Assembly: GCA_965230295.1 (NCBI GenBank) | Contig: OZ246001.1 | Location: 3,392,001 to 3,456,000 of the forward strand | Length of the DNA stretch: 64,000 bases | Origin: Marinicella sp. | GTDB lineage: Bacteria > Pseudomonadota > Gammaproteobacteria > Xanthomonadales > Marinicellaceae | Reading direction: 5' to 3' | Part shown: in pieces, positions 48,659 through 59,949 of the stretch | Numbering within the stretch: position 1 is the first letter of the stretch | How the letters are laid out: each line of letters opens with the position of its first letter | Translations under genes and position numbers: made by a program | Notes under the pieces: model-generated | What the model was told of the DNA's origin: nothing | The model's input: only the letters and a program-made list of their open reading frames with translations | Databases searched by the model: none

Positions 48659-49429
48659 TTACATCATTCGCTCAATCACCCAATAACAACCCAAAGCGCC
48701 AATCATCAGGCTGCCTGGGACCACAACCAATGAACGGTACTTCGTTTTTTTCATGAATTTAAACAGCAATAAAAACACCACTGTGGCAAAACCCAATTGA
48801 CCAATTTCAACACCCAGGTTAAAACCGAGTAGGGCGCTGAAAAAATGCCCCCCCGGAATGCCCAAGTCGCTCAAAGCACCCGCAAATCCCAAGCCATGTA
48901 ACAAGCCAAAAGCGAACACCAATGCATAGCGCCTCATGCCAGCTGTTTGTTTCATGAAAATGTTCTCAAATGCCACAAAGGCTATAGAAAAGGCGATGGC
49001 CACTTCAATCCAGATACCTTGAAGCACAATAACCCCCATCACACTGAGAATCAACGTCACACTGTGCGCCAAGGTGAACAGTGAGATTTGTATGATCAAT
49101 TGCCTGAATGTGGCAGCTGATAACAGCAAAGCCAAAACAAAGGCCAAATGATCCAGACCCATGGGAATGATGTGTTCAACCCCTAATTGGGTATACAACA
49201 CGAAGGTACTGAATGGTGATCGATCCAATTCAATTTCTGGTAAACCTTCACCCTCAATCGTATTGCTTGCTCGATCCAATTCTGCCAATTGAGCGCACAG
49301 CATGGGATCCATTTCTGCTTCTTGGCAAAAGTCGTCTTCAGGATGACTCCAACCATCACATAACAATAGCATCATGATGATCAATGTTAAGTATTTAATC
49401 ATTGCAAGTGATTTGGACCAGTCAGTCAT
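48659..49429 (-). CDS. HupE/UreJ-family metal transporter-like protein
   Basis: GVEHI..GLDH, FTLAHSVTL, FGLLHGLGFA and FNLGVEIGQ motifs; start may be 49402. Confidence 0.88.
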   Translation of the reverse strand: MTDWSKSLAMIKYLTLIIMMLLLCDGWSHPEDDFCQEAEMDPMLCAQLAELDRASNTIEGEGLPEIELDRSPFSTFVLYTQLGVEHIIPMGLDHLAFVLALLLSAATFRQLIIQISLFTLAHSVTLILSVMGVIVLQGIWIEVAIAFSIAFVAFENIFMKQTAGMRRYALVFAFGLLHGLGFAGALSDLGIPGGHFFSALLGFNLGVEIGQLGFATVVFLLLFKFMKKTKYRSLVVVPGSLMIGALGCYWVIERMM

Positions 49430-49524
49430 AGGGCGGTTGTTCTACAGCACGGGAAGTTTGAGCCGATAGACTAGATGAAATTTCCTATGAAAGCAAGGGC
49501 TTAATGTCATTAAAAATTGAATTT

Positions 49525-49962
49525 GGAAAGCTGCTGAGCAGCTTGACCGGCCAAGCCGGTTAGGCAGTGAGTGGAATAAAGGTGGTTTTGCGAAGCAAAG
49601 AAACCTCATGTGAATGGCGTTATAGCACAGGCAATGAAAGTTGGGCGGTTTTATCGAAGATAAAGAAGCCCGATTTGAATGCCGTAGTGCGTGCGAGGTA
49701 GCAAGTCATGTTCGCCTCGGCAGCTACCGCATCGATCCCCAGGACGGGGTGAATGCAGAAAATTGTTGGGAACAATTCCTGCCTGCTATCGCTGCATACT
49801 TACATCCATGTAAGCAGCCATTTTCACTTTTGTCTGGAACAGGCATGCAGTGCGAAGCAACTGCTCAGACAATAGTCTGTAAAGGTCGGTTTATTTGCGC
49901 AGCAAATATGAAGACCTGTCAGACCATGAACCAGAATGAAGCCCCAAGAAAATTCCTTAAAT
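49525..49962 (+). repeat. Structured non-coding repeat (MITE/REPIN-like), left copy with nested hairpin inserts
   Basis: 49822-49962 matches the reverse complement of 59684-59824 at 138/141; outer 24 bp GGAAAGCTGCTGAGCAGCTTGACC is identical. Confidence 0.9.
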
Positions 49963-50052
49963 CACGCATTGTATTTTTTTTAAATTTATTTTGAGCCGTT
50001 TCACGCCTCTTCTCCGAATCTGTAGTTAATCACTACAAAACGGGAGCAGGCA

Positions 50053-50697
50053 GTGCAATTCAAATCTAACTTATTATTCTTGGTATTCAGCTTGACGTTG
50101 GTTGCTTGTGGGGGAAGCAGCAACTACCGTCCGGTTGATAATGTGTCAGGTCGCCCCACCACTTATGTCGACCCGGGATCACGCGGCGTTGTCAGTGGTG
50201 TGGGGGTGGAGTCACAGGACATCTTGTCGATGACTGAACAAATGATGCGCAGCATCATCTCCAGCGGTATTCTTAACAATCGCACCAGGCCGCCTCGAAT
50301 CATCATGGACGCAGCCTTCTTTGAAAACCAAAGCGCCCAAGCCATCAATAAAAACCTGATAGTTGACCGTTTAAGAACTGGGTTGATCCGTGCTTCGCAA
50401 GGTCGAATGATGTTTGTTGCCAGACAAAACATCGCGATGGTTGAAAAAGAGCGCCAGTTAAAACGTGCAGGCACGGTTGACCAGGGATCTGCAGGGTTGA
50501 CCAAAGCCACAGCAGGAGGAGATTACCGTTTAACTGGCAGCATCAAGTCTTTAGATGCCAGAGATCGTTACACTGGAGCCATTCAACGCTATTCACAAAT
50601 CACCTTTGAATTGGTTGATTTGGAATACGGCACCATCGTTTGGGCCGATGATTTTGAATTTTCCAAATTCGCTCAAGACGACGCGATTTACCGCTAG
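50053..50697 (+). CDS. LpoB/CsgG-like lipoprotein
   Basis: Lipobox LVAC; FVARQNIAMVEKERQL, DYRLTGSI and FELVDLEYGTIVWAD motifs. Confidence 0.75.
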   Translation: MQFKSNLLFLVFSLTLVACGGSSNYRPVDNVSGRPTTYVDPGSRGVVSGVGVESQDILSMTEQMMRSIISSGILNNRTRPPRIIMDAAFFENQSAQAINKNLIVDRLRTGLIRASQGRMMFVARQNIAMVEKERQLKRAGTVDQGSAGLTKATAGGDYRLTGSIKSLDARDRYTGAIQRYSQITFELVDLEYGTIVWADDFEFSKFAQDDAIYR

Positions 50698-50703
50698 GAG
50701 GTT

Positions 50704-51966
50704 GTGATGAAAAGCAGTGTTGTGTTGTTGTTGATATTTGGGTTATTGGGATGCAGCTCAGCACCTAAGTATGCCTACGAACAGTCTGTCGCTGAAGACC
50801 AGTTGAATGTCTTTATGCAAGGAAAACCAGGGCATTATCGGCCCTATTTTGAGGTGTATCTCAGACAAGGTGCCCGCAACAGTGTTCTCAATGAAACGCG
50901 AATAGGCTTATTGGCTTTACAAAATGGTGATGAAGATTTGGCTGCTTGGTTGTTTGATCGAGCCATCAACAAAATTGAATCCATCTATGCCAACAACAAA
51001 ACCGCCAAAAAGGCCCGTTCAAAGTTTAAGAAAGAAGAACTCAAAGACTTTAAAGGTGAACCCTATGAACGTGCCATGGCCTATTTTTACCGAGGTCTGA
51101 TTTACTTAAAAAATGACGATTTCGAGAATGCCCGAGCCAGTATGTTGGGTGGCTTGCTGCACGATTCCATGGCTGAAGACCAAACTTACGAACAAGATTT
51201 TGCGAGTCATTTTTATCTGGCTGGTTGGGCCTCCTATTGCAACAATAACCCGTCTCAAGCAGATGATTACTTCAGCCAAGCACAAGAATTAAATGCCGCA
51301 TTACAGCCTCCTCAAACAGGACAAAACCTGCTTATTCTGGCCACCTCAGGTTTGGGTCCCAGTAAATTCAGAAAAGGTAAATACAATGAATTGATGGCAT
51401 TTGATACCAGCAGCATACAAAGCGCAGCAGGCATCAAACGCCCTGTGATCTATCAAAACAATCAAACCCTGTACTTTGCCACTGCGGAGAACATCCACTG
51501 GCAAGCCACAACTCGTGGTGGCCGCACCATTGATGTGATCAACCAAGGCAAAGCTGTTTTCAAGGACAACACCGATCAGATGGGTTCAGCCTTAACCAGT
51601 ACCGGCTCTACATTGATGAACACTGGATTGAGTCAAAACAACCGAAAACTGGGCAATGCCGGTGCGGTCATGGCCTTGTTTGGTTTGGTGTCAAAAGGAG
51701 TGTCAAAAGCAACCAAACCAACGGCAGACATCAGGTATTGGGATAATTTGCCGGCATTCGTCTATACCAGCGTGACCAACAAACAAGCGTTGCGTTCAGC
51801 CAGCCCCCAATTACATTTTGTTGATGCCCTTAAACAAAATCAGCAAGACATGACACCCGAATTGCTGAAAGTCATGCAGCACAGTTTGGAAACAGATGAT
51901 AGCTGTGATGTGCTGTATGTTCACAGTGACCCAGGCTATCTGAGTTACCGCCACATTAACCAATAA
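50704..51966 (+). CDS. COG3014-like TPR lipoprotein
   Basis: Lipobox LLGC; FKGEPYERAM, DDFENARA and ADIRYWDNLP motifs. Confidence 0.7.
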   Translation: MMKSSVVLLLIFGLLGCSSAPKYAYEQSVAEDQLNVFMQGKPGHYRPYFEVYLRQGARNSVLNETRIGLLALQNGDEDLAAWLFDRAINKIESIYANNKTAKKARSKFKKEELKDFKGEPYERAMAYFYRGLIYLKNDDFENARASMLGGLLHDSMAEDQTYEQDFASHFYLAGWASYCNNNPSQADDYFSQAQELNAALQPPQTGQNLLILATSGLGPSKFRKGKYNELMAFDTSSIQSAAGIKRPVIYQNNQTLYFATAENIHWQATTRGGRTIDVINQGKAVFKDNTDQMGSALTSTGSTLMNTGLSQNNRKLGNAGAVMALFGLVSKGVSKATKPTADIRYWDNLPAFVYTSVTNKQALRSASPQLHFVDALKQNQQDMTPELLKVMQHSLETDDSCDVLYVHSDPGYLSYRHINQ

Positions 51967-51977
51967 AGAGGTGCCTT

Positions 51978-52460
51978 ATGAGATTATTCATTGCTATCAC
52001 GATTTTAGTATTATTAAGTGGTTGTGCGTCTAAACCGAGACAAGCCCCGCCAGTGACATTTCCAACCTGTGATTTTACCCATGCACCACACGGCTCTGCA
52101 CCCAGAGGTTATGGAGCTTTGGTACCAGCCATCAAAGGCACCATGCACCCAATTGCCTTATCAACGGTCAGTATCACCGATACAGCCTTGTTGCGACGCA
52201 TCGTGGTACAGGACGTCAAAGCCATGCGCAGTCAATCTGAACAACTCAATGTTTTCGCTCGCATTGTGAACTGTACTGACTATCCAATCATCTTAGAAGC
52301 AAGAACCCAATACTTGGATGCCAACCAAGTCATCGCTGAACCTGTGACACAGTGGAAGCGGATTTACTTACCAGCCAGGACCATAGGTAACTATCAAGAA
52401 GCATCGATCAGGCAGCCCATGCCAGACACTTTCTTGATTGAACTGCGAGAACAATTATGA
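51978..52460 (+). CDS. YcfL/DUF1425-like lipoprotein
   Basis: Lipobox LSGC; NCTDYP.ILEARTQYLD...W; operon context. Confidence 0.65.
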   Translation: MRLFIAITILVLLSGCASKPRQAPPVTFPTCDFTHAPHGSAPRGYGALVPAIKGTMHPIALSTVSITDTALLRRIVVQDVKAMRSQSEQLNVFARIVNCTDYPIILEARTQYLDANQVIAEPVTQWKRIYLPARTIGNYQEASIRQPMPDTFLIELREQL

Positions 52461-53365
52461 AAACACCATTTCTTTTAATGATTTGCTGGTCAGCTTTGAG
52501 TTTTGCGCAACACCGCAATGACTTACCACCGGTGTTGTCCCAACAAGACAATCAGTCTGCTCATTTACAGTACGCCAACGAACCCTACCGAATCACAGTT
52601 AGCCCAGCAATGGGACAACAATACCGTGCTATGGGAAGTCCAAAAATACTGTTATTACTGGGCAGAAAGCTTGGCAGTGAATTATCAGAGTGGCAGGCCG
52701 ACACCCGTGACACCATAACCACCATGAATCGGGCTTATCAAGGCACTCATCAAGCCAAAGACAGCCGAGACACTCATCGGATGACGGAAAAACGCAAAGT
52801 CATCAGCGTCAATGTGACGCCAGGCATGCAGGCATTTTACAAGGGCTTTACTGACTACATGCAAGCTGCCAACATCGGTATGGTCAGTTATGATTCAATT
52901 GTCAGACAAACACAGAGAAAGAATGAATTAACTGGTACCATTGATCGCAGCACTGACTTTCGGGAAGTGGAAGCCGATGCCATCCTCAATCAGGTTGATG
53001 TTTTGGTTGAAATCATGGATGCGGGATCCGTAACCGTACTGGGTCAACGAATAGATAGGGTACAAGTCAATGTCACACGCATGGATACCTTTGAGACTTT
53101 GTCACAACATGTCGGGCAAGGACCTGAATATTATGAAGTCAAAGAACAATGGGTGGCTGGTGATGCAGGCTATGAACAATTGAAAACAGTGGTATTACAT
53201 CATGCAGATGTGGGTTTTCAGTTGGCAGAAACAATGCTCTCGAAAGCCTTATTGCGGCCCTACAAACCACGCACTCAGAACACGACTGTTATCAATCAAT
53301 CCAAAACACCTATCAAGAAGAAAAAGCGGGTGTTGCCACCCAAAGGCAATGTCCCAAGAGAGTGA
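52457..53365 (+). CDS. Hypothetical secreted protein
   Basis: Signal peptide (LSFA), ATGA coupling to the upstream gene, basic C-terminal tail. Confidence 0.7.
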   Translation: MKTPFLLMICWSALSFAQHRNDLPPVLSQQDNQSAHLQYANEPYRITVSPAMGQQYRAMGSPKILLLLGRKLGSELSEWQADTRDTITTMNRAYQGTHQAKDSRDTHRMTEKRKVISVNVTPGMQAFYKGFTDYMQAANIGMVSYDSIVRQTQRKNELTGTIDRSTDFREVEADAILNQVDVLVEIMDAGSVTVLGQRIDRVQVNVTRMDTFETLSQHVGQGPEYYEVKEQWVAGDAGYEQLKTVVLHHADVGFQLAETMLSKALLRPYKPRTQNTTVINQSKTPIKKKKRVLPPKGNVPRE

Positions 53366-56300
53366 ACATGATCAACAGAACCTGTCTTTGTTTGTTGTTA
53401 CTACTTGGTCTGACATTGAACTGTCAAGTTCAAGCCAGCAGCGAAAGAGAACAAGAAATCGATGCGATCAAAACACAATTGAAAAAAAATCGCAGCGATT
53501 GGTGGAAACTTTCCGGTAAGATTCAACACCATTTAGACAATAAGGTCACCAATGTGGCTGATCGAAAACTGATCGGATTGGCAAAAATATTGGGTCGTCA
53601 ACAACAATTGAATGAAGATTTGGCGGCTTTGGAAGCAGAGCGAGCAGACGCATTCAAACGCTGGCAAAAGGAACATCCCACCAAAACCCGTGAAGATTGG
53701 CGCACAAGTGGTGCTGAATGGGCAGCCAATACCCGCATCAATGAGCGCGTGAATCAGATCTGGAGCCAATACATCAGAGATCAAGAAAATTACCGCCATC
53801 GGGTGCTGCCAGGTAAAGACGGAGAGTTGGCTGATCTGCAGTGGCAACAAGATGTTTTGTTGGACCAAAGGCGCCGGTTGATAGAACAGTTGAAACGTTT
53901 AGAAGCCATGACCGACGATGCTTATTTGCGACAAAAAGCCCCGATAATTGGCGCCAAGCCACTGCAGCTAGAATTGTTGGGCAACAGTGTCAGACATGTT
54001 AAAGGGGGGAAGCCTGAAGCCGTTAAATTTGTCATCAGTGGTGGAAAACTACCCATGGTTATGGCGTACCGCAATGCCAAGGGGACACTCAGTTACTTCA
54101 ATGTTGATCGGCGGGGCCAACATGAAGTGGTCATGAATTTTACCGGTGCAGACCAAAGTGGTATGCGCATTTTCCGGCTTGAGGACAATGATTTTCCCAG
54201 GAGCTTTCAATCATTCACCGTTTCCTTCATGGTGCTTGATGAGGGCAAGAAAGCTCCAGATAAAGCCACTCCAAGTGGAAAACCAGGCCCCACACCGACA
54301 CCAGTCGGCATATCTGGTACCAGCACATCGGTTGCTGATCGTGATGGTGACGGGGTTCCCGATGATCAGGACAACTGTCCAGATGTTTACAACCCATCCC
54401 AGGCAGACAGCGATCATGATGGTGAAGGTGATGCCTGCGAGCCACAACCTAAAAAGCCGGCAGATCCGATTCCGCCGCTGTCAGTTGAGTTCACCTGTGG
54501 CAAAGCATTTGAGTTGTCGCCCAATGATGTGTTGTACCCCAAAACCTGTTATGTGGTCGTTCGCAACGCACCCACAACCCATGAAAAGGTCCAACTGAAA
54601 GCCATCTATGATGAAAAACTGCTTGATGTGATTTTTGATGAACAAGCCGAACAAGCCAAATACCCAGAAAACAAATTCTTATTGATCATCAGAACTTTGG
54701 TCACAGCACCACCTACCTTAACGACCTTAACTTTAGTGGTCAGGCAAGGGGGGCAAGAAGTGGTTAAATACATAGATGTGTTGATTTTGTTACCTGAGCA
54801 GGAACCCAGTTCTGGTTCGGGTATCCGACCAGCTGCGGATGTGGCGGCAGGTTCTGGGGGTGCATTTTGTGTTTGGCGTTATAAATCATTTGGCGATCTG
54901 CCAAAATGTTTCAACATTGTTACTGCACAATGTGACAACACCAAATATGCCGGAAAGACCCGGTTTGAATTGGTGGGCAATAACATGACAGCAGAAGAGG
55001 CGGCATTCCGTGCGTTTCAACTCAGTCCATACAAAGGAGATGCCTATGGGTGTCACGCCCAGCAGACTCAGCCTCCGGTGATCAAAGACCGTGATCATGA
55101 TGGTGTATCAGATGACGAAGACAATTGTCCGGATCACCCCAATCCGTATCAACAAAACAGCGACCAAAATCCTGCCGGAGATGTGTGTCAACCCCCACAA
55201 CCAGAACCAGTACCTGACCCCGAACCAACCACAGACAAGCCAACCCAGGATCCTGTAACAGAGGCAGATTGTTCGGCATACCCGGGAACTGTTTCTGTCT
55301 GGCATGAAGCCACTCAATCGGCCGGGTGTGTATGCCCAGGCAATGATGATTGGTCAGATGCCCTACAACGTTGTGCTTCGGATACAGAGGATCAAATAGC
55401 CAACACTGACTGTCGTGGTTATGGGCCACAATCCATAGCTCAATGGGATCAGGCCAGTCAACAAGTGATGTGCGCATGTATGGCAGGTTATGAATTTGAT
55501 GTGACAGATCAGTGTGTGCCAGTCAGTCAAACAGGTCCTTGTGAAGCGTATCCAGGCACAGAATGGGCCAATGGGCAATGCCAATGTCCAGGCCTGTTGG
55601 AATGGTCAGACAGTCAAGGTCAATGCTTACCTTTGGCTGATCTGGCCAGTCATGACATCAATTGCACCGCGTACCCCGGAACGGCTGCGATGTGGGATTC
55701 AGCGCAAGGACAATGGCGCTGTCAATGTGTTGGCACCAAAAAATGGTCTGCAACTTTAGGAACATGTGCTTATCCTGAAGATGAACAAGTGGCAGCCACC
55801 GATTGTTCAAACTATCCAGACACGACGGCTGAATATGATGCCTTCACAGGAGGGGTGTTGTGCCGTTGTAACCAAGCGGGTCTGGTCTTGTCTAAGAGTC
55901 AAGGAAAATGTATGGCACCTGTGGCCGCTGCGGTGGCCGATCATGATTGCAGTGCCTTTGGGATCGGGGCCCAAGCCATGATCAGTTCAACCAACAGAAC
56001 ACCACATTGTGAGTGTGTCAGTGGCTATCACATGAATGCAGCAGGAACTTCATGCTTGGCCGATTCTGGTGCAGGCACAGTGGTCGGACAAGAACCCACC
56101 AGTCCCCCTGATGTGGTCAAGGATGGTACATGTGATGCATTAACACGTGCTGGCAGCAATGCAGCTGAACGGCATCGATTTAACATGGTGGGCAAGACCC
56201 AGTTGAGTCTGACCTATGAAACATTCACCGCCGAAGATAATGTGCGGGTTTTGAATGCAGCAGAGCAATTGCTGTGGCAATCTGGATGTGTAGGCACCGA

Positions 56301-56421
56301 TGGCAATGCCATAAAAGTGATCAATTTATCTCCAGGAACCACAGAAATATTCATCGATATCCATCCCAATTGTGCCGGTGACACCAGCACCAAATGGAAT
56401 TTTACGGCATCCTGTCAGTGA
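53362..56421 (+). CDS. Large secreted Cys-rich protein with thrombospondin type-3 and EGF-like repeats
   Basis: Signal peptide, coiled coil, two DxDxDG..D..DNCP...NP.Q blocks and six 4-Cys repeats. Confidence 0.8.
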   Translation: MNMINRTCLCLLLLLGLTLNCQVQASSEREQEIDAIKTQLKKNRSDWWKLSGKIQHHLDNKVTNVADRKLIGLAKILGRQQQLNEDLAALEAERADAFKRWQKEHPTKTREDWRTSGAEWAANTRINERVNQIWSQYIRDQENYRHRVLPGKDGELADLQWQQDVLLDQRRRLIEQLKRLEAMTDDAYLRQKAPIIGAKPLQLELLGNSVRHVKGGKPEAVKFVISGGKLPMVMAYRNAKGTLSYFNVDRRGQHEVVMNFTGADQSGMRIFRLEDNDFPRSFQSFTVSFMVLDEGKKAPDKATPSGKPGPTPTPVGISGTSTSVADRDGDGVPDDQDNCPDVYNPSQADSDHDGEGDACEPQPKKPADPIPPLSVEFTCGKAFELSPNDVLYPKTCYVVVRNAPTTHEKVQLKAIYDEKLLDVIFDEQAEQAKYPENKFLLIIRTLVTAPPTLTTLTLVVRQGGQEVVKYIDVLILLPEQEPSSGSGIRPAADVAAGSGGAFCVWRYKSFGDLPKCFNIVTAQCDNTKYAGKTRFELVGNNMTAEEAAFRAFQLSPYKGDAYGCHAQQTQPPVIKDRDHDGVSDDEDNCPDHPNPYQQNSDQNPAGDVCQPPQPEPVPDPEPTTDKPTQDPVTEADCSAYPGTVSVWHEATQSAGCVCPGNDDWSDALQRCASDTEDQIANTDCRGYGPQSIAQWDQASQQVMCACMAGYEFDVTDQCVPVSQTGPCEAYPGTEWANGQCQCPGLLEWSDSQGQCLPLADLASHDINCTAYPGTAAMWDSAQGQWRCQCVGTKKWSATLGTCAYPEDEQVAATDCSNYPDTTAEYDAFTGGVLCRCNQAGLVLSKSQGKCMAPVAAAVADHDCSAFGIGAQAMISSTNRTPHCECVSGYHMNAAGTSCLADSGAGTVVGQEPTSPPDVVKDGTCDALTRAGSNAAERHRFNMVGKTQLSLTYETFTAEDNVRVLNAAEQLLWQSGCVGTDGNAIKVINLSPGTTEIFIDIHPNCAGDTSTKWNFTASCQ

Positions 56422-59113
56422 TTTTTTGCAGCAGGGTCATGCATTTTTTGGTGAGGAAATTGGCTGACCCTTTTTTGTTATGCAAGGTGTCACAGGCTTG
56501 GCGGGTCAATGGTTCATCAGGTTGATTTTGAATGAACTTGACCATCGACAAGGCATAGTTGGTTTCGCCCAACAGCCAATGATCTGGTGGTAGTTTTTGT
56601 TGTCTGATGTCCAATGCCTGTTGGATCAATTGGCGTCCTGCTTCCAAATCTCCCAATGCCACCTTGGCTCGACCCAGGCCCAAATAACTGTAAGACAGGT
56701 AAAGGTGATCTGCAGGTAAGGTTTTTTGACGTATTTCTAATGATTTTTGTAACATGTCATGGGCTTGTTGAAATTCATTCAACTCTAACAAGGTATTGGC
56801 CATGTTGGTGTACACCGAAGCCGTTTGAGGATGATCGACACCACGGGCAGCAATGATGGGGTCACTGATGTCCTGATAAATGGTGATGGCTTTGGAAAAT
56901 TCTGCATTTTCATGGTAAACCATGGCCAAATTATTCCAGGCATCATTGATTCTCATGTGACCCGGTTCCAAAGTCAGCTGCCTGATTTCCAGAGCTTGTT
57001 GCAAATAGGGCAGTGCCTCATTGGGTCTACCTGCATCGTTGAGGAGTAATCCCATGTTAGTCAGCGACTGGGCTTGCTCTGGGTGTGCAGTGGTAAATAT
57101 TTGATCACGAAGATCAATGGCTTGTAGGAAAAATTGCTCACCCCTTTCCAGATTCCCTTGCATATAGTTAGCCAATCCCAGGTTGTTGATATTGGTTGCA
57201 TAGTCGGTATCTAAAATAGGTAAGGGTTTGTCGCCCCACAGACTTTCTCTGATTTGTTTGGTTTCCAGTAAGATTTCTTCGACTTGCTGGTATTTGCCTT
57301 GCCTGAAATAAACAGCAGTCAAATCATTCAAGCTTTGGGCATATAGCTTGTGGTTTCTGCCGTACAGTTGTTCGTGGAGTTCAGTGGCCTCTGTACCCAA
57401 TTGTTCAGCCTCGGCAAAGGCACCTTGCAGCATTTTGACCCGTCCCAATCGGCTTAACACAGATGCGATACCCTCTTGATTGTCTTCCGCATTGACTTGG
57501 TACATTTCGAGAGACTTCCTGAGCCAAGATTCCGCCACATCATGATGGGCCATCATGCGTTGATTCTCACCGAGCATCAACATGCCTTTGGCTAACGCAG
57601 ATGGAGTTTGATCAGGCAAGCTGGTTCTTATGGCATGGGCATCTTCGAGTACTTGTTGTGCCGTGTTGAAGTTGCCAAGATTTTGATAGGTGTGGGCAAT
57701 TTCTTCGAGCAATTCTGCTTCAACCTCGGTTGGCGTGGTGAAAGTATCCCTGACTTGCTGCAAGCCCATATCCAACACTTCAGTCGCGGTCAATTCTTGC
57801 CCGGGTTGTTTGTTTGGGTTAGCTACATTGAACACGTCAACCAACAAGTCTTTCACTGTTATGGCTTTGTCTCGCTCTGCAGACAGGGCTTGGTTATGTA
57901 AATCAGTCATGTACGCAAAGACACCAAGCATGATGGCAATAGACGCGGTGAAAAACATCAATAATTTATGTCGCCTGACATAAGAACTCACCCGATATGA
58001 CAGGGTTGATGGCCGAGCCTCGATACAATAACCGTTTTTATATTTGTGTAAATCATCTGCAAGGGCTTGAGCGGTTTGGTAACGATCCTCAGGTTTGACC
58101 TTCAACGCCTTGGCCACAATGAATTGTAAGTCAGAGCTGTAAACGCGATTTAATTGCCCATAACTGCTGTTTGTATGATGGATCAATTGCTCAATATGTG
58201 GTTTTTGACTGTTCAGAATGTGCCATTGTTGAGTCAACAATGGCCAATGGTGTTTTGCTTTCTCAATTTGATCAGGTGACAACTGAAACAGCAGCTCAAA
58301 CAACAATTGCCCCAACTGGTGAATGTCTGTGGAGGTGATGATTTTTTCACCTTGGTCGTGTTCAGGTGTTTTGTAATCAACTGAGTAACCTTTGATTTCA
58401 TCATGGTGTTGGTGCATCATTCTGGCGATACCAAAATCCAGCAACTTCACTTCCCCATCTTCATTGACCATGATGTTTGATGGCTTGATGTCACCATGAA
58501 TAACCAAATGCTGGTGTGCATATTGTATGGCATTGAGCACCTGACTGAATAATTTCAAGCGTGCAGATAAGGACAAGCGCTTGTTCTGGCAATAGCTCAC
58601 AATATCTGTACCTTTGACCAGTTCCATCACAAAATAGGGTTGACCGGCTGAGGTGGTGCCCGAATCATACAGTTGAACAATGTTGGGGTGAATCAAGCTG
58701 GCCAGAATTTCTTTTTCATGGGCGAATAGGGCTTGATTGTGATCAAAATTCAGATCAATGGGCATCATCTTGATGATCACTTCTCGCTCAAACTCACCAT
58801 CAGCTCGTTGGGCCAGGAAAATACTGCCCATACCACCTTGTTTTATGAGATTTTTGATTTGGTATGGGCCGATATGAAAACCTCTGAAGCAATGTTCTTC
58901 GATTTCATTCAATTGGGTTTGAGAGATGTCATTCTCAAGTGTGGCAAAAAAATCTTCAGAAGCCAGTTCATGGGCTAACAACTGATCCACTTGTTGCCGC
59001 AAAACCATATCTTCTCCACAGGCTTCAGCTAGGAATGTTTGCTGTTCTTCGCCAGATAACTCTGCTGCCTGCAGAAAAATTTCCATGACTTGTTCGGATG
59101 GGCCATGACTCAT
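56402..59113 (-). CDS. Membrane Ser/Thr protein kinase with periplasmic TPR array
   Basis: GGMG, VIIK, HPNI, HGDIKPSN and DFG motifs; one TM; many TPRs. Confidence 0.92.
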   Translation of the reverse strand: MSHGPSEQVMEIFLQAAELSGEEQQTFLAEACGEDMVLRQQVDQLLAHELASEDFFATLENDISQTQLNEIEEHCFRGFHIGPYQIKNLIKQGGMGSIFLAQRADGEFEREVIIKMMPIDLNFDHNQALFAHEKEILASLIHPNIVQLYDSGTTSAGQPYFVMELVKGTDIVSYCQNKRLSLSARLKLFSQVLNAIQYAHQHLVIHGDIKPSNIMVNEDGEVKLLDFGIARMMHQHHDEIKGYSVDYKTPEHDQGEKIITSTDIHQLGQLLFELLFQLSPDQIEKAKHHWPLLTQQWHILNSQKPHIEQLIHHTNSSYGQLNRVYSSDLQFIVAKALKVKPEDRYQTAQALADDLHKYKNGYCIEARPSTLSYRVSSYVRRHKLLMFFTASIAIMLGVFAYMTDLHNQALSAERDKAITVKDLLVDVFNVANPNKQPGQELTATEVLDMGLQQVRDTFTTPTEVEAELLEEIAHTYQNLGNFNTAQQVLEDAHAIRTSLPDQTPSALAKGMLMLGENQRMMAHHDVAESWLRKSLEMYQVNAEDNQEGIASVLSRLGRVKMLQGAFAEAEQLGTEATELHEQLYGRNHKLYAQSLNDLTAVYFRQGKYQQVEEILLETKQIRESLWGDKPLPILDTDYATNINNLGLANYMQGNLERGEQFFLQAIDLRDQIFTTAHPEQAQSLTNMGLLLNDAGRPNEALPYLQQALEIRQLTLEPGHMRINDAWNNLAMVYHENAEFSKAITIYQDISDPIIAARGVDHPQTASVYTNMANTLLELNEFQQAHDMLQKSLEIRQKTLPADHLYLSYSYLGLGRAKVALGDLEAGRQLIQQALDIRQQKLPPDHWLLGETNYALSMVKFIQNQPDEPLTRQACDTLHNKKGSANFLTKKCMTLLQKITDRMP

Positions 59114-59616
59114 GTCGATAGCCTTTGGAACAGCAGGGTTTTAGCCATTGTCCAGTCTCGTTTTACTGTTGCCAAAGAGATGCCCAATGCTTCTGCTGTT
59201 TCAGGTAAGGTTAAGCCGCCAAAGAATCGACAAGTAACCGTATCAGCCAGGCGTTTGTTTTCTTGTTCAAGATTCGATAACGCTTCTTCCAAAGCCAAAA
59301 TATCTTGGCTGCGGCTGGCAGACACCAAATCGACTTGATCAAGGGTTAATTCATTGCTGAATGCGCCTCGTTTTTTTGCACTCCAAATACGGGCATTGTC
59401 AATAATGATGTTCCTCATGGCGACAGATGTGAGGTAAAACAACTCATTTTTATTGGCAACTTCAGTGTTGTTTTTAATCAAATTTAGATAGGCTTCATGA
59501 ACGATGCTGCGCGTTCCAAGATTATTCTTACTGTACACACGACTGCGCTGAACACGAGCCAGGCGCTTAAGGTCGTCATAGATCTCAGGCAGTAGTTTAT
59601 CCAGTTCTTGTGCCAA
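59110..59616 (-). CDS. ECF sigma factor of the kinase-associated type (EcfK/EcfP-like)
   Basis: IYDDLKRLAR, VHEAYL, MRNIIID.AR...AKKRG, RFFGGL and TVKRDW motifs; stop overlaps the kinase start. Confidence 0.9.
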   Translation of the reverse strand: MAQELDKLLPEIYDDLKRLARVQRSRVYSKNNLGTRSIVHEAYLNLIKNNTEVANKNELFYLTSVAMRNIIIDNARIWSAKKRGAFSNELTLDQVDLVSASRSQDILALEEALSNLEQENKRLADTVTCRFFGGLTLPETAEALGISLATVKRDWTMAKTLLFQRLST

Positions 59617-59683
59617 TAAAAATTCCCCAATGATTGTTTATTTTTCTATTATTATAAAATCGAATGGGTGGTGCGTGTAAATT

Positions 59684-59923
59684 ATTTAAGGGATGTTCTT
59701 GGGGCTTCATTCTGGTTCATGGTCTGACAGGTCTTCATATTTGCTGCGCAAATAAACCGACCTTTACAGACTATTGTCTGAGCAGTTGCTTCGCACTGCA
59801 TGCCTGTTCCTGACAAAAGTGAAAGCGTCCACTGCGAACATAGCATACTACCTCGCGCTCTTCGCCTCTGATTCGCTACGCTCACCAACCGTCTCAGCGG
59901 GTCAAGCTGCTCAGCAGCTTTCC
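59684..59923 (-). repeat. Structured non-coding repeat, right (inverted) copy
   Basis: Reverse complement shares the 24-bp outer end, the GCGAGGTAG..ATGTTCGC segment and the 141-bp core with 49525-49962. Confidence 0.9.
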
Positions 59924-59949
59924 CTTGTTGGTTTTACAACACCAGCTGC

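Follow-up and report, generated by a model that had tools for sequence, protein, structure and literature searches.

Bacterial structured intergenic repeats, among them REP, ERIC, and BOX, have been known for decades, and for most of them both the manner of spread and the role of the fold are still debated. The ERIC/IRU, pneumococcal BOX, and Neisseria NIME/dRS3 families are structured intergenic repeats of about 100–150 nucleotides (nt), whose longer forms arise from blocks inserted at set internal positions or from varying numbers of modules. ERIC, BOX, and NIME combine high conservation between species with a debated function. REP, BIME, and REPIN repeats, together with RAYT proteins, form another group, in which high-copy intergenic hairpin repeats are arranged in mosaics and tandem arrays and a single-stranded DNA (ssDNA) substrate is suspected. 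IS200/IS605 elements and their palindrome-associated derivatives have end hairpins and a replication-linked orientation, with no terminal inverted repeats and no target duplication. The attC sites of integrons are imperfect hairpins read on one DNA strand, and in chromosomal integrons the recombining strand is placed with a bias relative to replication. Here we describe an intergenic element of Marinicella sp. (assembly GCA_965230295.1) that shares the listed features of the REP and IS200/IS605 groups, the modular build of the ERIC, BOX, and NIME families, and the hairpin character of attC. It lies in a 64,000-nt stretch of contig OZ246001.1 (positions 3,392,001–3,456,000, forward strand), referred to as the window, in which an initial annotation had reported a hairpin module seen three times.

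In its modular build the element is most like ERIC, BOX, and NIME. Nevertheless, it is unrelated to them in sequence, folds on one specific strand, contains many G.A motifs and triloops, lacks a long inverted repeat at its ends, and is oriented with respect to replication. The initial annotation had drawn an analogy to attC sites, and this was not supported. Copies are scattered over 87 loci and do not form cassette arrays (intI was not searched for), their ends carry no GTTRRRY-type R/L core boxes, and the internal loop of the hairpins is a symmetric 3x3 loop instead of extrahelical bases. As a hairpin-based and duplication-free repeat, the element resembles REP/BIME or IS200/IS605-derived sequences, but it lacks the membership features that were tested for each. 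Among the interspersed structured repeats of bacteria, it is a new, genus-specific variant whose asymmetries of strand and replication are unusual. We interpret it as a non-coding, non-autonomous interspersed mobile element, specific to Marinicella and dependent on an ssDNA fold, that would be moved by a putative mobiliser; our confidence in this interpretation is evenly balanced.

Copy number, ends, and modular build

The element occupies part of a 623-nt spacer that has a HupE/UreJ gene on one side and an LpoB-like lipoprotein gene on the other. BLAST coverage of this spacer against the 4.0-Mb genome rises from 1 to more than 60 at 49525 and drops again at 49958, and the matches fall into scattered loci throughout the genome. 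A mismatch-tolerant scan for a 37-nt head and a 25-nt tail yielded 67 elements with both and left two lone heads and 44 further tails, for 111 tails in total. These counts derive from a Hamming scan, an earlier fuzzy-regex scan having undercounted (11 heads, 17 tails). The elements begin with GGAAAG and end with TCCTT. Both ends are sharp, the flanks are unrelated between copies, and assembled contigs confirm the ends and the multi-copy nature of the sequence. Identity within the element classes of this genome is 91–97%.

Full elements come in discrete sizes from 149 to 633 nt, namely 149 nt (14 copies), 236 nt (seven), 633 nt (seven), 356 nt (four), 420 nt (three), and others. When one copy of each of 13 sizes was aligned, a constant, colinear scaffold of 149 nt emerged, with optional blocks at fixed places. 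A block of about 120 nt can replace the tip of the second domain, and one or two units of about 64 nt can occupy the 3' internal loop of that domain. A further 66 nt or about 100 nt may follow the 5' strand of the long-range helix described below, and a block of 94 nt may be placed at the last hairpin's tip, replacing the 7-nt 3' arm. Most blocks contain one hairpin of the GGT/GAA kind, whereas the module of about 100 nt, termed e, does not. Growth by nested insertion, as first proposed from the window sequence, agrees with these hairpin modules at fixed loop positions across size classes. Optional hairpin modules of about 64–100 nt would thereby have accreted in the scaffold loops and extended the element from 149 to 633 nt.

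Other arrangements of the same parts were also recorded, with coordinates given for genome G000, contig C1, of this Marinicella. At four sites (G000:C1 701206–701372, 759737–759884, 1049323–1049393, and 2855432–2855581), a second, unrelated block takes the place of module f at the tip of the last hairpin and likewise bears a G-G-T/GAA hairpin; at the first of these sites, two tails stand face to face as an inverted pair. Solo perfect or near-perfect palindromes, equal to the head hairpin alone (10-bp stem, 3-nt loop), lie at G000:C1 902117, 1199636, 2341473, and 3169469; three belong to the main subfamily and the fourth to another. They were considered as target sites, and this was rejected: only three or four occur in the genome, and the head type varies with the interior subfamily. 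They are more likely derivatives or relics, and may represent internal deletions or ancestral hairpins.

The recurrent hairpin module

All three hairpins of the form stem/G-G-T/stem/triloop/stem/G-A-A/stem, as well as the GCGAAGC heptamer, are read directly from the sequence of the left window copy, and the third hairpin recurs in the right copy together with a GCGTAGC heptamer (Table 1). Taken singly, their folding is modestly better than that of shuffled sequences and not significant on its own (z −1.8, −2.3, and −3.3 on the top strand and −2.1, −2.6, and −3.5 on the bottom strand with DNA folding; −2.3, −3.4, and −3.4 on the top strand with RNA folding). The signal is recurrence. A pairing-pattern scan of both strands of the whole genome gave 243 matches, with a background of 3–5 per Mb per strand in three 1-Mb shuffles. 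Within the 67 full elements, 113 matches lie on the head-to-tail strand and none antisense.

A sequence-only profile (nhmmer) recovered 141 units, 102 of them distinct and 81 with both anchors; an anchor-only motif scan in which pairing was not required had been too noisy (1297 matches), and the profile search was used instead. In the two-anchor units, pairing holds in 229 of 243 cells of the outer stem and 439 of 466 cells of the inner stem (94% each), across more than ten different fully paired inner stems, although the 14 seeds of the profile came from the pairing scan and the test is partly circular. Stems that vary yet stay paired were thus recovered as first described. The invariance ascribed to the loops was not. 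The triloop is GAA in 37 units, AAA in 20, GTA in six, and another sequence in 18, and on its 5' side the internal loop reads GGT in 52 units and GAT in 29, so that both are preferred only. Complete units are imperfect hairpins of about 65 nt with an additional T-G-A-A/T-G-A-A tandem G.A motif in the outer stem.

Tandem arrays made from the element's motifs, namely a GGTTGG...TCAGAG domain and a G-R-T/GAA hairpin, are found at G000:C1 2890230–2890850, 1488800–1489170, 2177480–2177730, 761780–762122, and 1313017–1313526, with periods of 104–122 nt and three to six units.

A conserved fold on one strand

Of 20 loci fetched from 11 other Marinicella genomes, 19 contain the scaffold from end to end, at 75–86% identity. 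These 19 copies, from 10 genomes, were aligned with 19 copies from diverged subfamilies of the window's own genome, to give 38 copies from 11 genomes. The fold consists of a 5' hairpin (P1), an irregular hairpin domain rich in G.A and G.T (P2), and a long 3' hairpin (P3–P4), the last closed by a long-range helix between the central part of the element and the 3' end. Compensatory changes affect 24 of the 40 consensus pairs, and 97.6% of cells are paired. In the long-range helix, for example, one pair is A-U in 31 copies and G-C in seven, and another is U-A in 27 and C-G in 10. None of 500 shuffles reached any of five measures, and slid partners pair in 37–43%. This supports the earlier proposal of selection on a single-strand fold.

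The fold lies on the head-to-tail strand only. With RNA parameters, the consensus energy is −31.0 kcal/mol for the top strand versus −10.0 for its reverse complement; with DNA parameters, the values are −11.3 and −5.1 kcal/mol. One-sided departures from pairing are G.T in 33 cases versus A.C in seven, and two further pairs are G.T wobbles in 38 of 38 and 37 of 38 copies. The optional modules emerge from the loops of this fold, which fits nested growth that spares the structure.

A covariance model of the fold, R1, found 106 matches in the own genome at E<=0.001, among which the 19 own copies of the seed alignment match by construction. None was found in 140 other gammaproteobacterial genomes (one per family). 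BLAST recovered pieces of the element in 18 of 23 congeners and in none of 17 genomes of other genera; five of the 23 had no match and several had only one. An exact 22-mer of the tail occurs in 75 stretches of a species-representative collection, all titled as Marinicella or as gammaproteobacterial, proteobacterial, or Lysobacterales assemblies, and no match was found in plasmid or phage collections. As far as sequence searches reach, the family is restricted to the genus Marinicella. Copy number and subfamilies vary between species, and the 137-nt tail of module f is near-specific to the own genome. Rfam gave no match at gathering score in the 64-kb window, and at E up to 10 in 49300–50200 only two unrelated weak matches outside the element. 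With many additional instances and no Rfam match, neither of the outcomes that the initial annotation had named as refuting its module came about. Among the publications on Marinicella genome repeats listed by a literature search, no title or opening of an abstract concerned this repeat, and the corresponding entries on mosaic elements, ERIC, and NIME offered background only.

Orientation relative to replication

Cumulative GC skew has its minimum at 1,719,421, 1.8 kb from dnaA (1,721,237), and its maximum at 3,857,364; local skew agrees with the replichore in 110 of 111 cases. The head-to-tail strand of the 67 full elements is lagging in 51 and leading in 16 (p 2e-5, a value that overstates the evidence since the copies are related). 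This ratio is 14:0 in the 149-nt class, 7:0 in the 633-nt class, and 76:35 over all 111 tails. It remains lagging-biased between co-directional genes both on the leading strand (19:6) and on the lagging strand (11:2), where the fold strand is sense 17 times and antisense 21 times, as judged with crude gene calls (open reading frames >=100 amino acids, greedy choice). Element orientation tracks replication, not neighbouring genes. The REP family associated with the only RAYT-like gene of the genome is unbiased (15:15). The bias of the element is strongest in the most uniform classes, which suggests that it arises at insertion rather than by slow differential loss of copies.

Insertion flanks and signs of mobility

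No target duplication was detected at any offset for repeats of 3–6 nt (best 6 of 67), and the only terminal inverted match is an imperfect one of 6 nt (GGAAAG/CATTCC). On the left flank, C stands at −4 in 52 of 67 copies and is followed by three variable, A/T-rich bases that differ even between near-identical copies. Among 19 copies from other species, 14 show the same C when the flanks are read by eye. A/T-richness also marks the right flank, where the third base is T in 46 of 67. No head–tail pair encloses a gene, and the sole own-strand head without a tail within 700 nt has none within 8 kb either.

These data bear on the idea of an ordinary miniature inverted-repeat transposable element (MITE) moved by a DDE transposase. 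The element is indeed short, non-coding, high-copy, and intergenic, and it has the 6-nt terminal match. However, the direct-repeat test, the absence of enclosed genes, and the long-range covariation and strand asymmetry, which are not expected for terminal-repeat recognition, make this explanation highly improbable.

Comparison between species adds to the picture. In the genome G003, the orthologous spacer between uvrC and the sigma-factor gene measures 132 nt, versus 357 nt here, and is without the element. A copy from G001 is 94–98% identical to copies in G002, G014, G016, G011, and G009, while the flanking DNA of the same query is mostly 75–85% identical, apart from one 295-nt stretch at 97% in G002. 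Such near-identity across species points to interspecies exchange or very strong constraint.

Candidate mobilising enzymes

The initial annotation had likened the fold to the ends of HUH transposons. Under this explanation the repeats would be a REP/BIME-like family mobilised by a Y1 HUH enzyme, either RAYT or the TnpA of IS200/IS605. Several traits fit, including hairpins without long terminal inverted repeats, the absence of target duplication, and a mosaic, sometimes tandem, arrangement. The low-information target with its conserved C recalls TnpA-REP of Escherichia coli, for which low target and cleavage specificity, restricted to C|T only, is described (PMC3333891). The own genome also encodes a single Y1 gene, RAYT-like and 187 amino acids long (G000:C1:1669261–1669824).

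This gene, however, is flanked by inverted copies of its own unrelated REP of 21 nt, which has about 30 genome copies and occurs in G003 as well. No element copy flanks it, the nearest lying about 10 kb away. Y1 genes are present in 16 of the 24 genus genomes, and element and enzyme do not co-occur: none was found in the element-rich genomes G021 (99% complete), G019, and G016, whereas G007, G012, G017, and G020 have Y1 genes and gave no element match. TnpB was not found in the own genome (PF01385 and PF07282, no matches), nor is there a cognate element with the same ends. The repeat differs from REP/BIME sequences in its unit as well, a 149-nt three-domain fold with a long-range helix and not inverted pairs of 20–40-nt palindromes with a GTAG or CGTC tag. 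In contrast to IS200/IS605 elements, its flank is not a fixed tetra- or pentanucleotide. The folded strand lies on the leading-strand template in 51 of 67 elements, whereas IS608-type elements use the lagging-strand template (PMC3333891). The HUH analogy was not supported: mobilisation by a Y1 enzyme is a distinctly unlikely account, and the mobiliser is probably not a Y1 HUH transposase.

Other enzymes gave no better candidate. The own genome had no reverse transcriptase or IS110 match, and a profile search for IS91 (PF04986) carries no information, its control having matched in no genome. The pentamer TCCTT at the element end is a recognition site of poxvirus-type topoisomerase IB, which brought this enzyme into consideration. 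That idea was rejected, since PF01028 is present in only one of 24 genomes (G007), which gave no element match.

Fold as DNA, as RNA, or as a host site

In the proposed mechanism, the fold would act as ssDNA, a cis-acting feature used by a putative trans-acting enzyme to copy or move the element during replication. In a new copy, the folded strand would become the nascent lagging strand, i.e., the leading-strand template, and the target adjoining them would be C-W-W-W on one side and W-W-T-W on the other.

Besides the relatedness of the copies and the crude gene calls, a series of observations weighs against this interpretation. The 44 more diverged tails, i.e., the 111 tails minus the 67 full elements, show a ratio of only 25:19, and four other genomes, scored by local GC skew, give 25 lagging-like copies versus 18, which is not significant (G023 15:8, G001 4:5, G002 3:5, G014 3:0; 43 copies in 38 of 40 fetched 20-kb regions). 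In most copies the folded strand corresponds to the leading-strand template, and this template seldom becomes single-stranded. For individual copies, nearest-neighbour energies separate neither top from bottom strand nor DNA from RNA, and the helix that contains the two invariant G.T wobbles would have little stability in DNA. The orthologous spacer in G003, at about 70% identity, is too diverged for its junction to be read, a second locus in G001 has rearranged neighbours and no clean empty site, and no contig joins across an empty site; with no exact empty site at hand, junction and mobility are both deduced. Finally, no mobilising enzyme was found among the families searched with an informative control.

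A rather doubtful alternative is that the fold works as RNA. Elements would be transcribed within neighbouring messages or alone and serve as stabilisers, processing or termination signals, or protein-binding small-RNA modules, with copy number reflecting past mobility only. Covariation that tolerates G.U, with the two invariant wobbles and the 33 G.T departures, suits this idea, as do the consensus energy of −31 kcal/mol with RNA parameters and the weakness of a short wobble-bearing helix in DNA. Optional stems at fixed loop positions also resemble the expansion segments of structured RNAs. Copies are intergenic only, with convergent gene pairs at 18 of 67 versus 264 of 1632 background spacers, and divergent pairs at 11 of 67 versus 433 of 1632. 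The sense and antisense counts given above argue in the other direction, together with an orientation that follows replication and is mostly head-on to it. The flanks carry no conserved upstream promoter, neither window copy contains a sigma-70 promoter-like or terminator-like site (one terminator-like match lies outside the element; Table 1), and no Rfam family matches. RNA usually has GNRA or UNCG tetraloops (PMC13037366), whereas the loops here are triloops.

The ssDNA fold suggested at the outset stands in part. Its restriction to one strand and the replication-linked orientation agree with it, as do the missing promoter and terminator signals; that it is DNA rather than RNA is favoured, not proven. 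In favour of DNA are the replication polarity, the lack of a link to the sense of neighbouring genes, and the non-conserved upstream flanks. Published data point the same way: mini-hairpins of the G-N-A type are found at ssDNA priming sites and are much more stable in DNA than in RNA (PMC13037366), and the triloops and G.A motifs that make up the loop repertoire of the element are especially stable in DNA (PMC13037366, PMC3201870).

The priming sites lead to another explanation, drawn by analogy. The repeats might be DNA structural sites used by the host, such as priming or restart signals on ssDNA, punctuation that excludes single-strand DNA-binding protein (SSB), or binding sites for nucleoid or replication proteins, kept by selection and spread by recombination or transformation. 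Primase-dependent ssDNA origins and ssi signals, such as those of phage G4 and RSF1010 ssiA, are comparable to the three-domain fold of about 150 nt and its G-N-A mini-hairpins: they are about 140 nt long, have several hairpins on one strand, and contain G-N-A mini-hairpins that are bound poorly by SSB (PMC13037366). The resemblance is one of fold description only, and the element has about 100 chromosomal copies. A replication-polarised orientation, very good conservation between species, and the lack of a transposase partner among the families searched would also be expected of a host site. Nonetheless, the five congeners without a match and the several with only one indicate that the elements are dispensable, and G003 has no element at the orthologous site. 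Species differ in copy number and in subfamilies, down to the near-specific tail of module f, and the orientation bias is absent in G001 and G002. We consider a host function unlikely.

A bolder version of the mobile-element interpretation, also improbable at present, would define a new class of mobile DNA by its fold and not by a transposase. The 149-nt three-domain ssDNA structure would be rich in SSB-resistant G.A motifs and triloops, and host replication enzymes would join or copy it into the nascent lagging strand at forks. The element would then accrete modules of about 64 nt into its own loops and pass between Marinicella species as naked non-coding DNA.

Organization of the window locus

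Two copies of the element lie in the window as an inverted repeat (141 nt at 98% and 37 nt at 89% identity), the right one between uvrC and a gene for an extracytoplasmic function (ECF) sigma factor. The features are collected in Table 1.

Table 1. Features of the two element copies and their surroundings in the window
Feature	Position	Strand	Evidence
HupE/UreJ gene	48659..49429	-	
Weak Zeta-pan RNA match within HupE/UreJ coding region	49301..49345	-	21.4 bits (gathering 56.7), E 0.3
Left copy, mosaic element of 434 nt, rearranged long form	49525..49958	+	Genome-wide BLAST coverage edges; head/tail pairing; contig loose ends at 49525 and 49958
P1 head hairpin, stem AGCTGC/GCAGCT, loop TGA, closed by GG..CC	49525..49549	+	Consensus helix 1, 7/8 pairs compensatory
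Hairpin 1, chimera of module a hairpin and module b 3' flank	49580..49606	+	Size-class alignment; unit sequences
Module c, ~65-nt long imperfect hairpin; tip is hairpin 2 (49643–49671)	49624..49692	+	Size-class alignment; unit sequences
Scaffold core, P3 5' strand ATGTTC at 49708–49713	49693..49716	+	Columns 88–93 pair with 173–178, 5/6 pairs compensatory
Optional module e, ~100 nt, in internal loop after P3 5' strand	49717..49819	+	Block present/absent between size classes; about 23–25 genomic copies
Optional module f, 94 nt, in place of P4 3' arm (7 nt, AAAAGTG); contains GCGAAGC (49852–49858) and hairpin 3 (49883–49917)	49841..49934	+	Size-class alignment
3' terminal segment, P3 3' strand 49948–49953 (one mismatch in left copy), terminal TCCTT	49935..49958	+	111 genomic tail-end matches; P3 covariation
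CACGC-~10 nt-CGAAT motif	49995..50030		
LpoB-like lipoprotein gene	50053..50697	+	
Gene cluster between the two copies	50053..59616		
CACGC-~10 nt-CGAAT motif	59640..59675	-	
Right copy, 236-nt class (149-nt scaffold + module f); hairpin 3 at 59729–59763, GCGTAGC mini-hairpin (P2 tip) at 59875–59881	59688..59923	-	Inverted-repeat comparison; head/tail scan; model R1 match at 59779–59923, E 3.7e-24
Terminator-like match outside the element	59927..59946	+	

The left copy lacks about 190 nt that are present in longer copies, including the 3' strand of P2. Because this strand is deleted, model R1 matches only the first 86 nt (E 3.2e-6). We take this copy for a deletion or recombinant derivative that is possibly no longer active. 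The outer stem of its module c has the T-G-A-A/T-G-A-A tandem G.A motif. Hairpin 2 occurs 21 times within full elements and twice elsewhere in the genome, plus one one-base variant, and hairpin 3 occurs 35 times within full elements and six times outside. A contig joint from 49841 to 49933 has the letters of the short form, in which module f is absent.

The copies bracket a cluster of 10 kb. On the plus strand, it encodes the LpoB-like lipoprotein, a TPR protein, two proteins without a Pfam family, and a thrombospondin-type-3-repeat protein of 1019 amino acids; on the opposite strand, the ECF sigma factor is followed by a Ser/Thr kinase-TPR protein of 903 amino acids. The gene order is the same in G003, at about 70% identity. 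Directly downstream of each copy lies one of two loosely similar CACGC/CGAAT motifs, which precede the lipoprotein operon and the sigma-factor gene; the first is kept in G003. They may represent an ECF-type promoter used both for the sigma gene and for the operon that it would target. In G003 (L043:1250–1350), the region ahead of the LpoB-like gene has a different tandem repeat, with three copies of a unit of about 43 nt, and also a hairpin that recurs unchanged in module e of the window element. The Zeta-pan match listed in Table 1 is most likely due to chance.

Perspective

The Marinicella family offers unusually clean handles on the biology of structured repeats: its long-range fold covaries and is confined to one strand, its modules are added in discrete steps at loop positions, and its youngest classes show a strong replication polarity. 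With a fold acting as DNA, structure-dependent single-strand transposition would no longer be confined to HUH elements and integrons; with a fold acting as RNA, the repeats would constitute a new large structured RNA family. Marinicella is a culturable genus, and either reading is testable in it.

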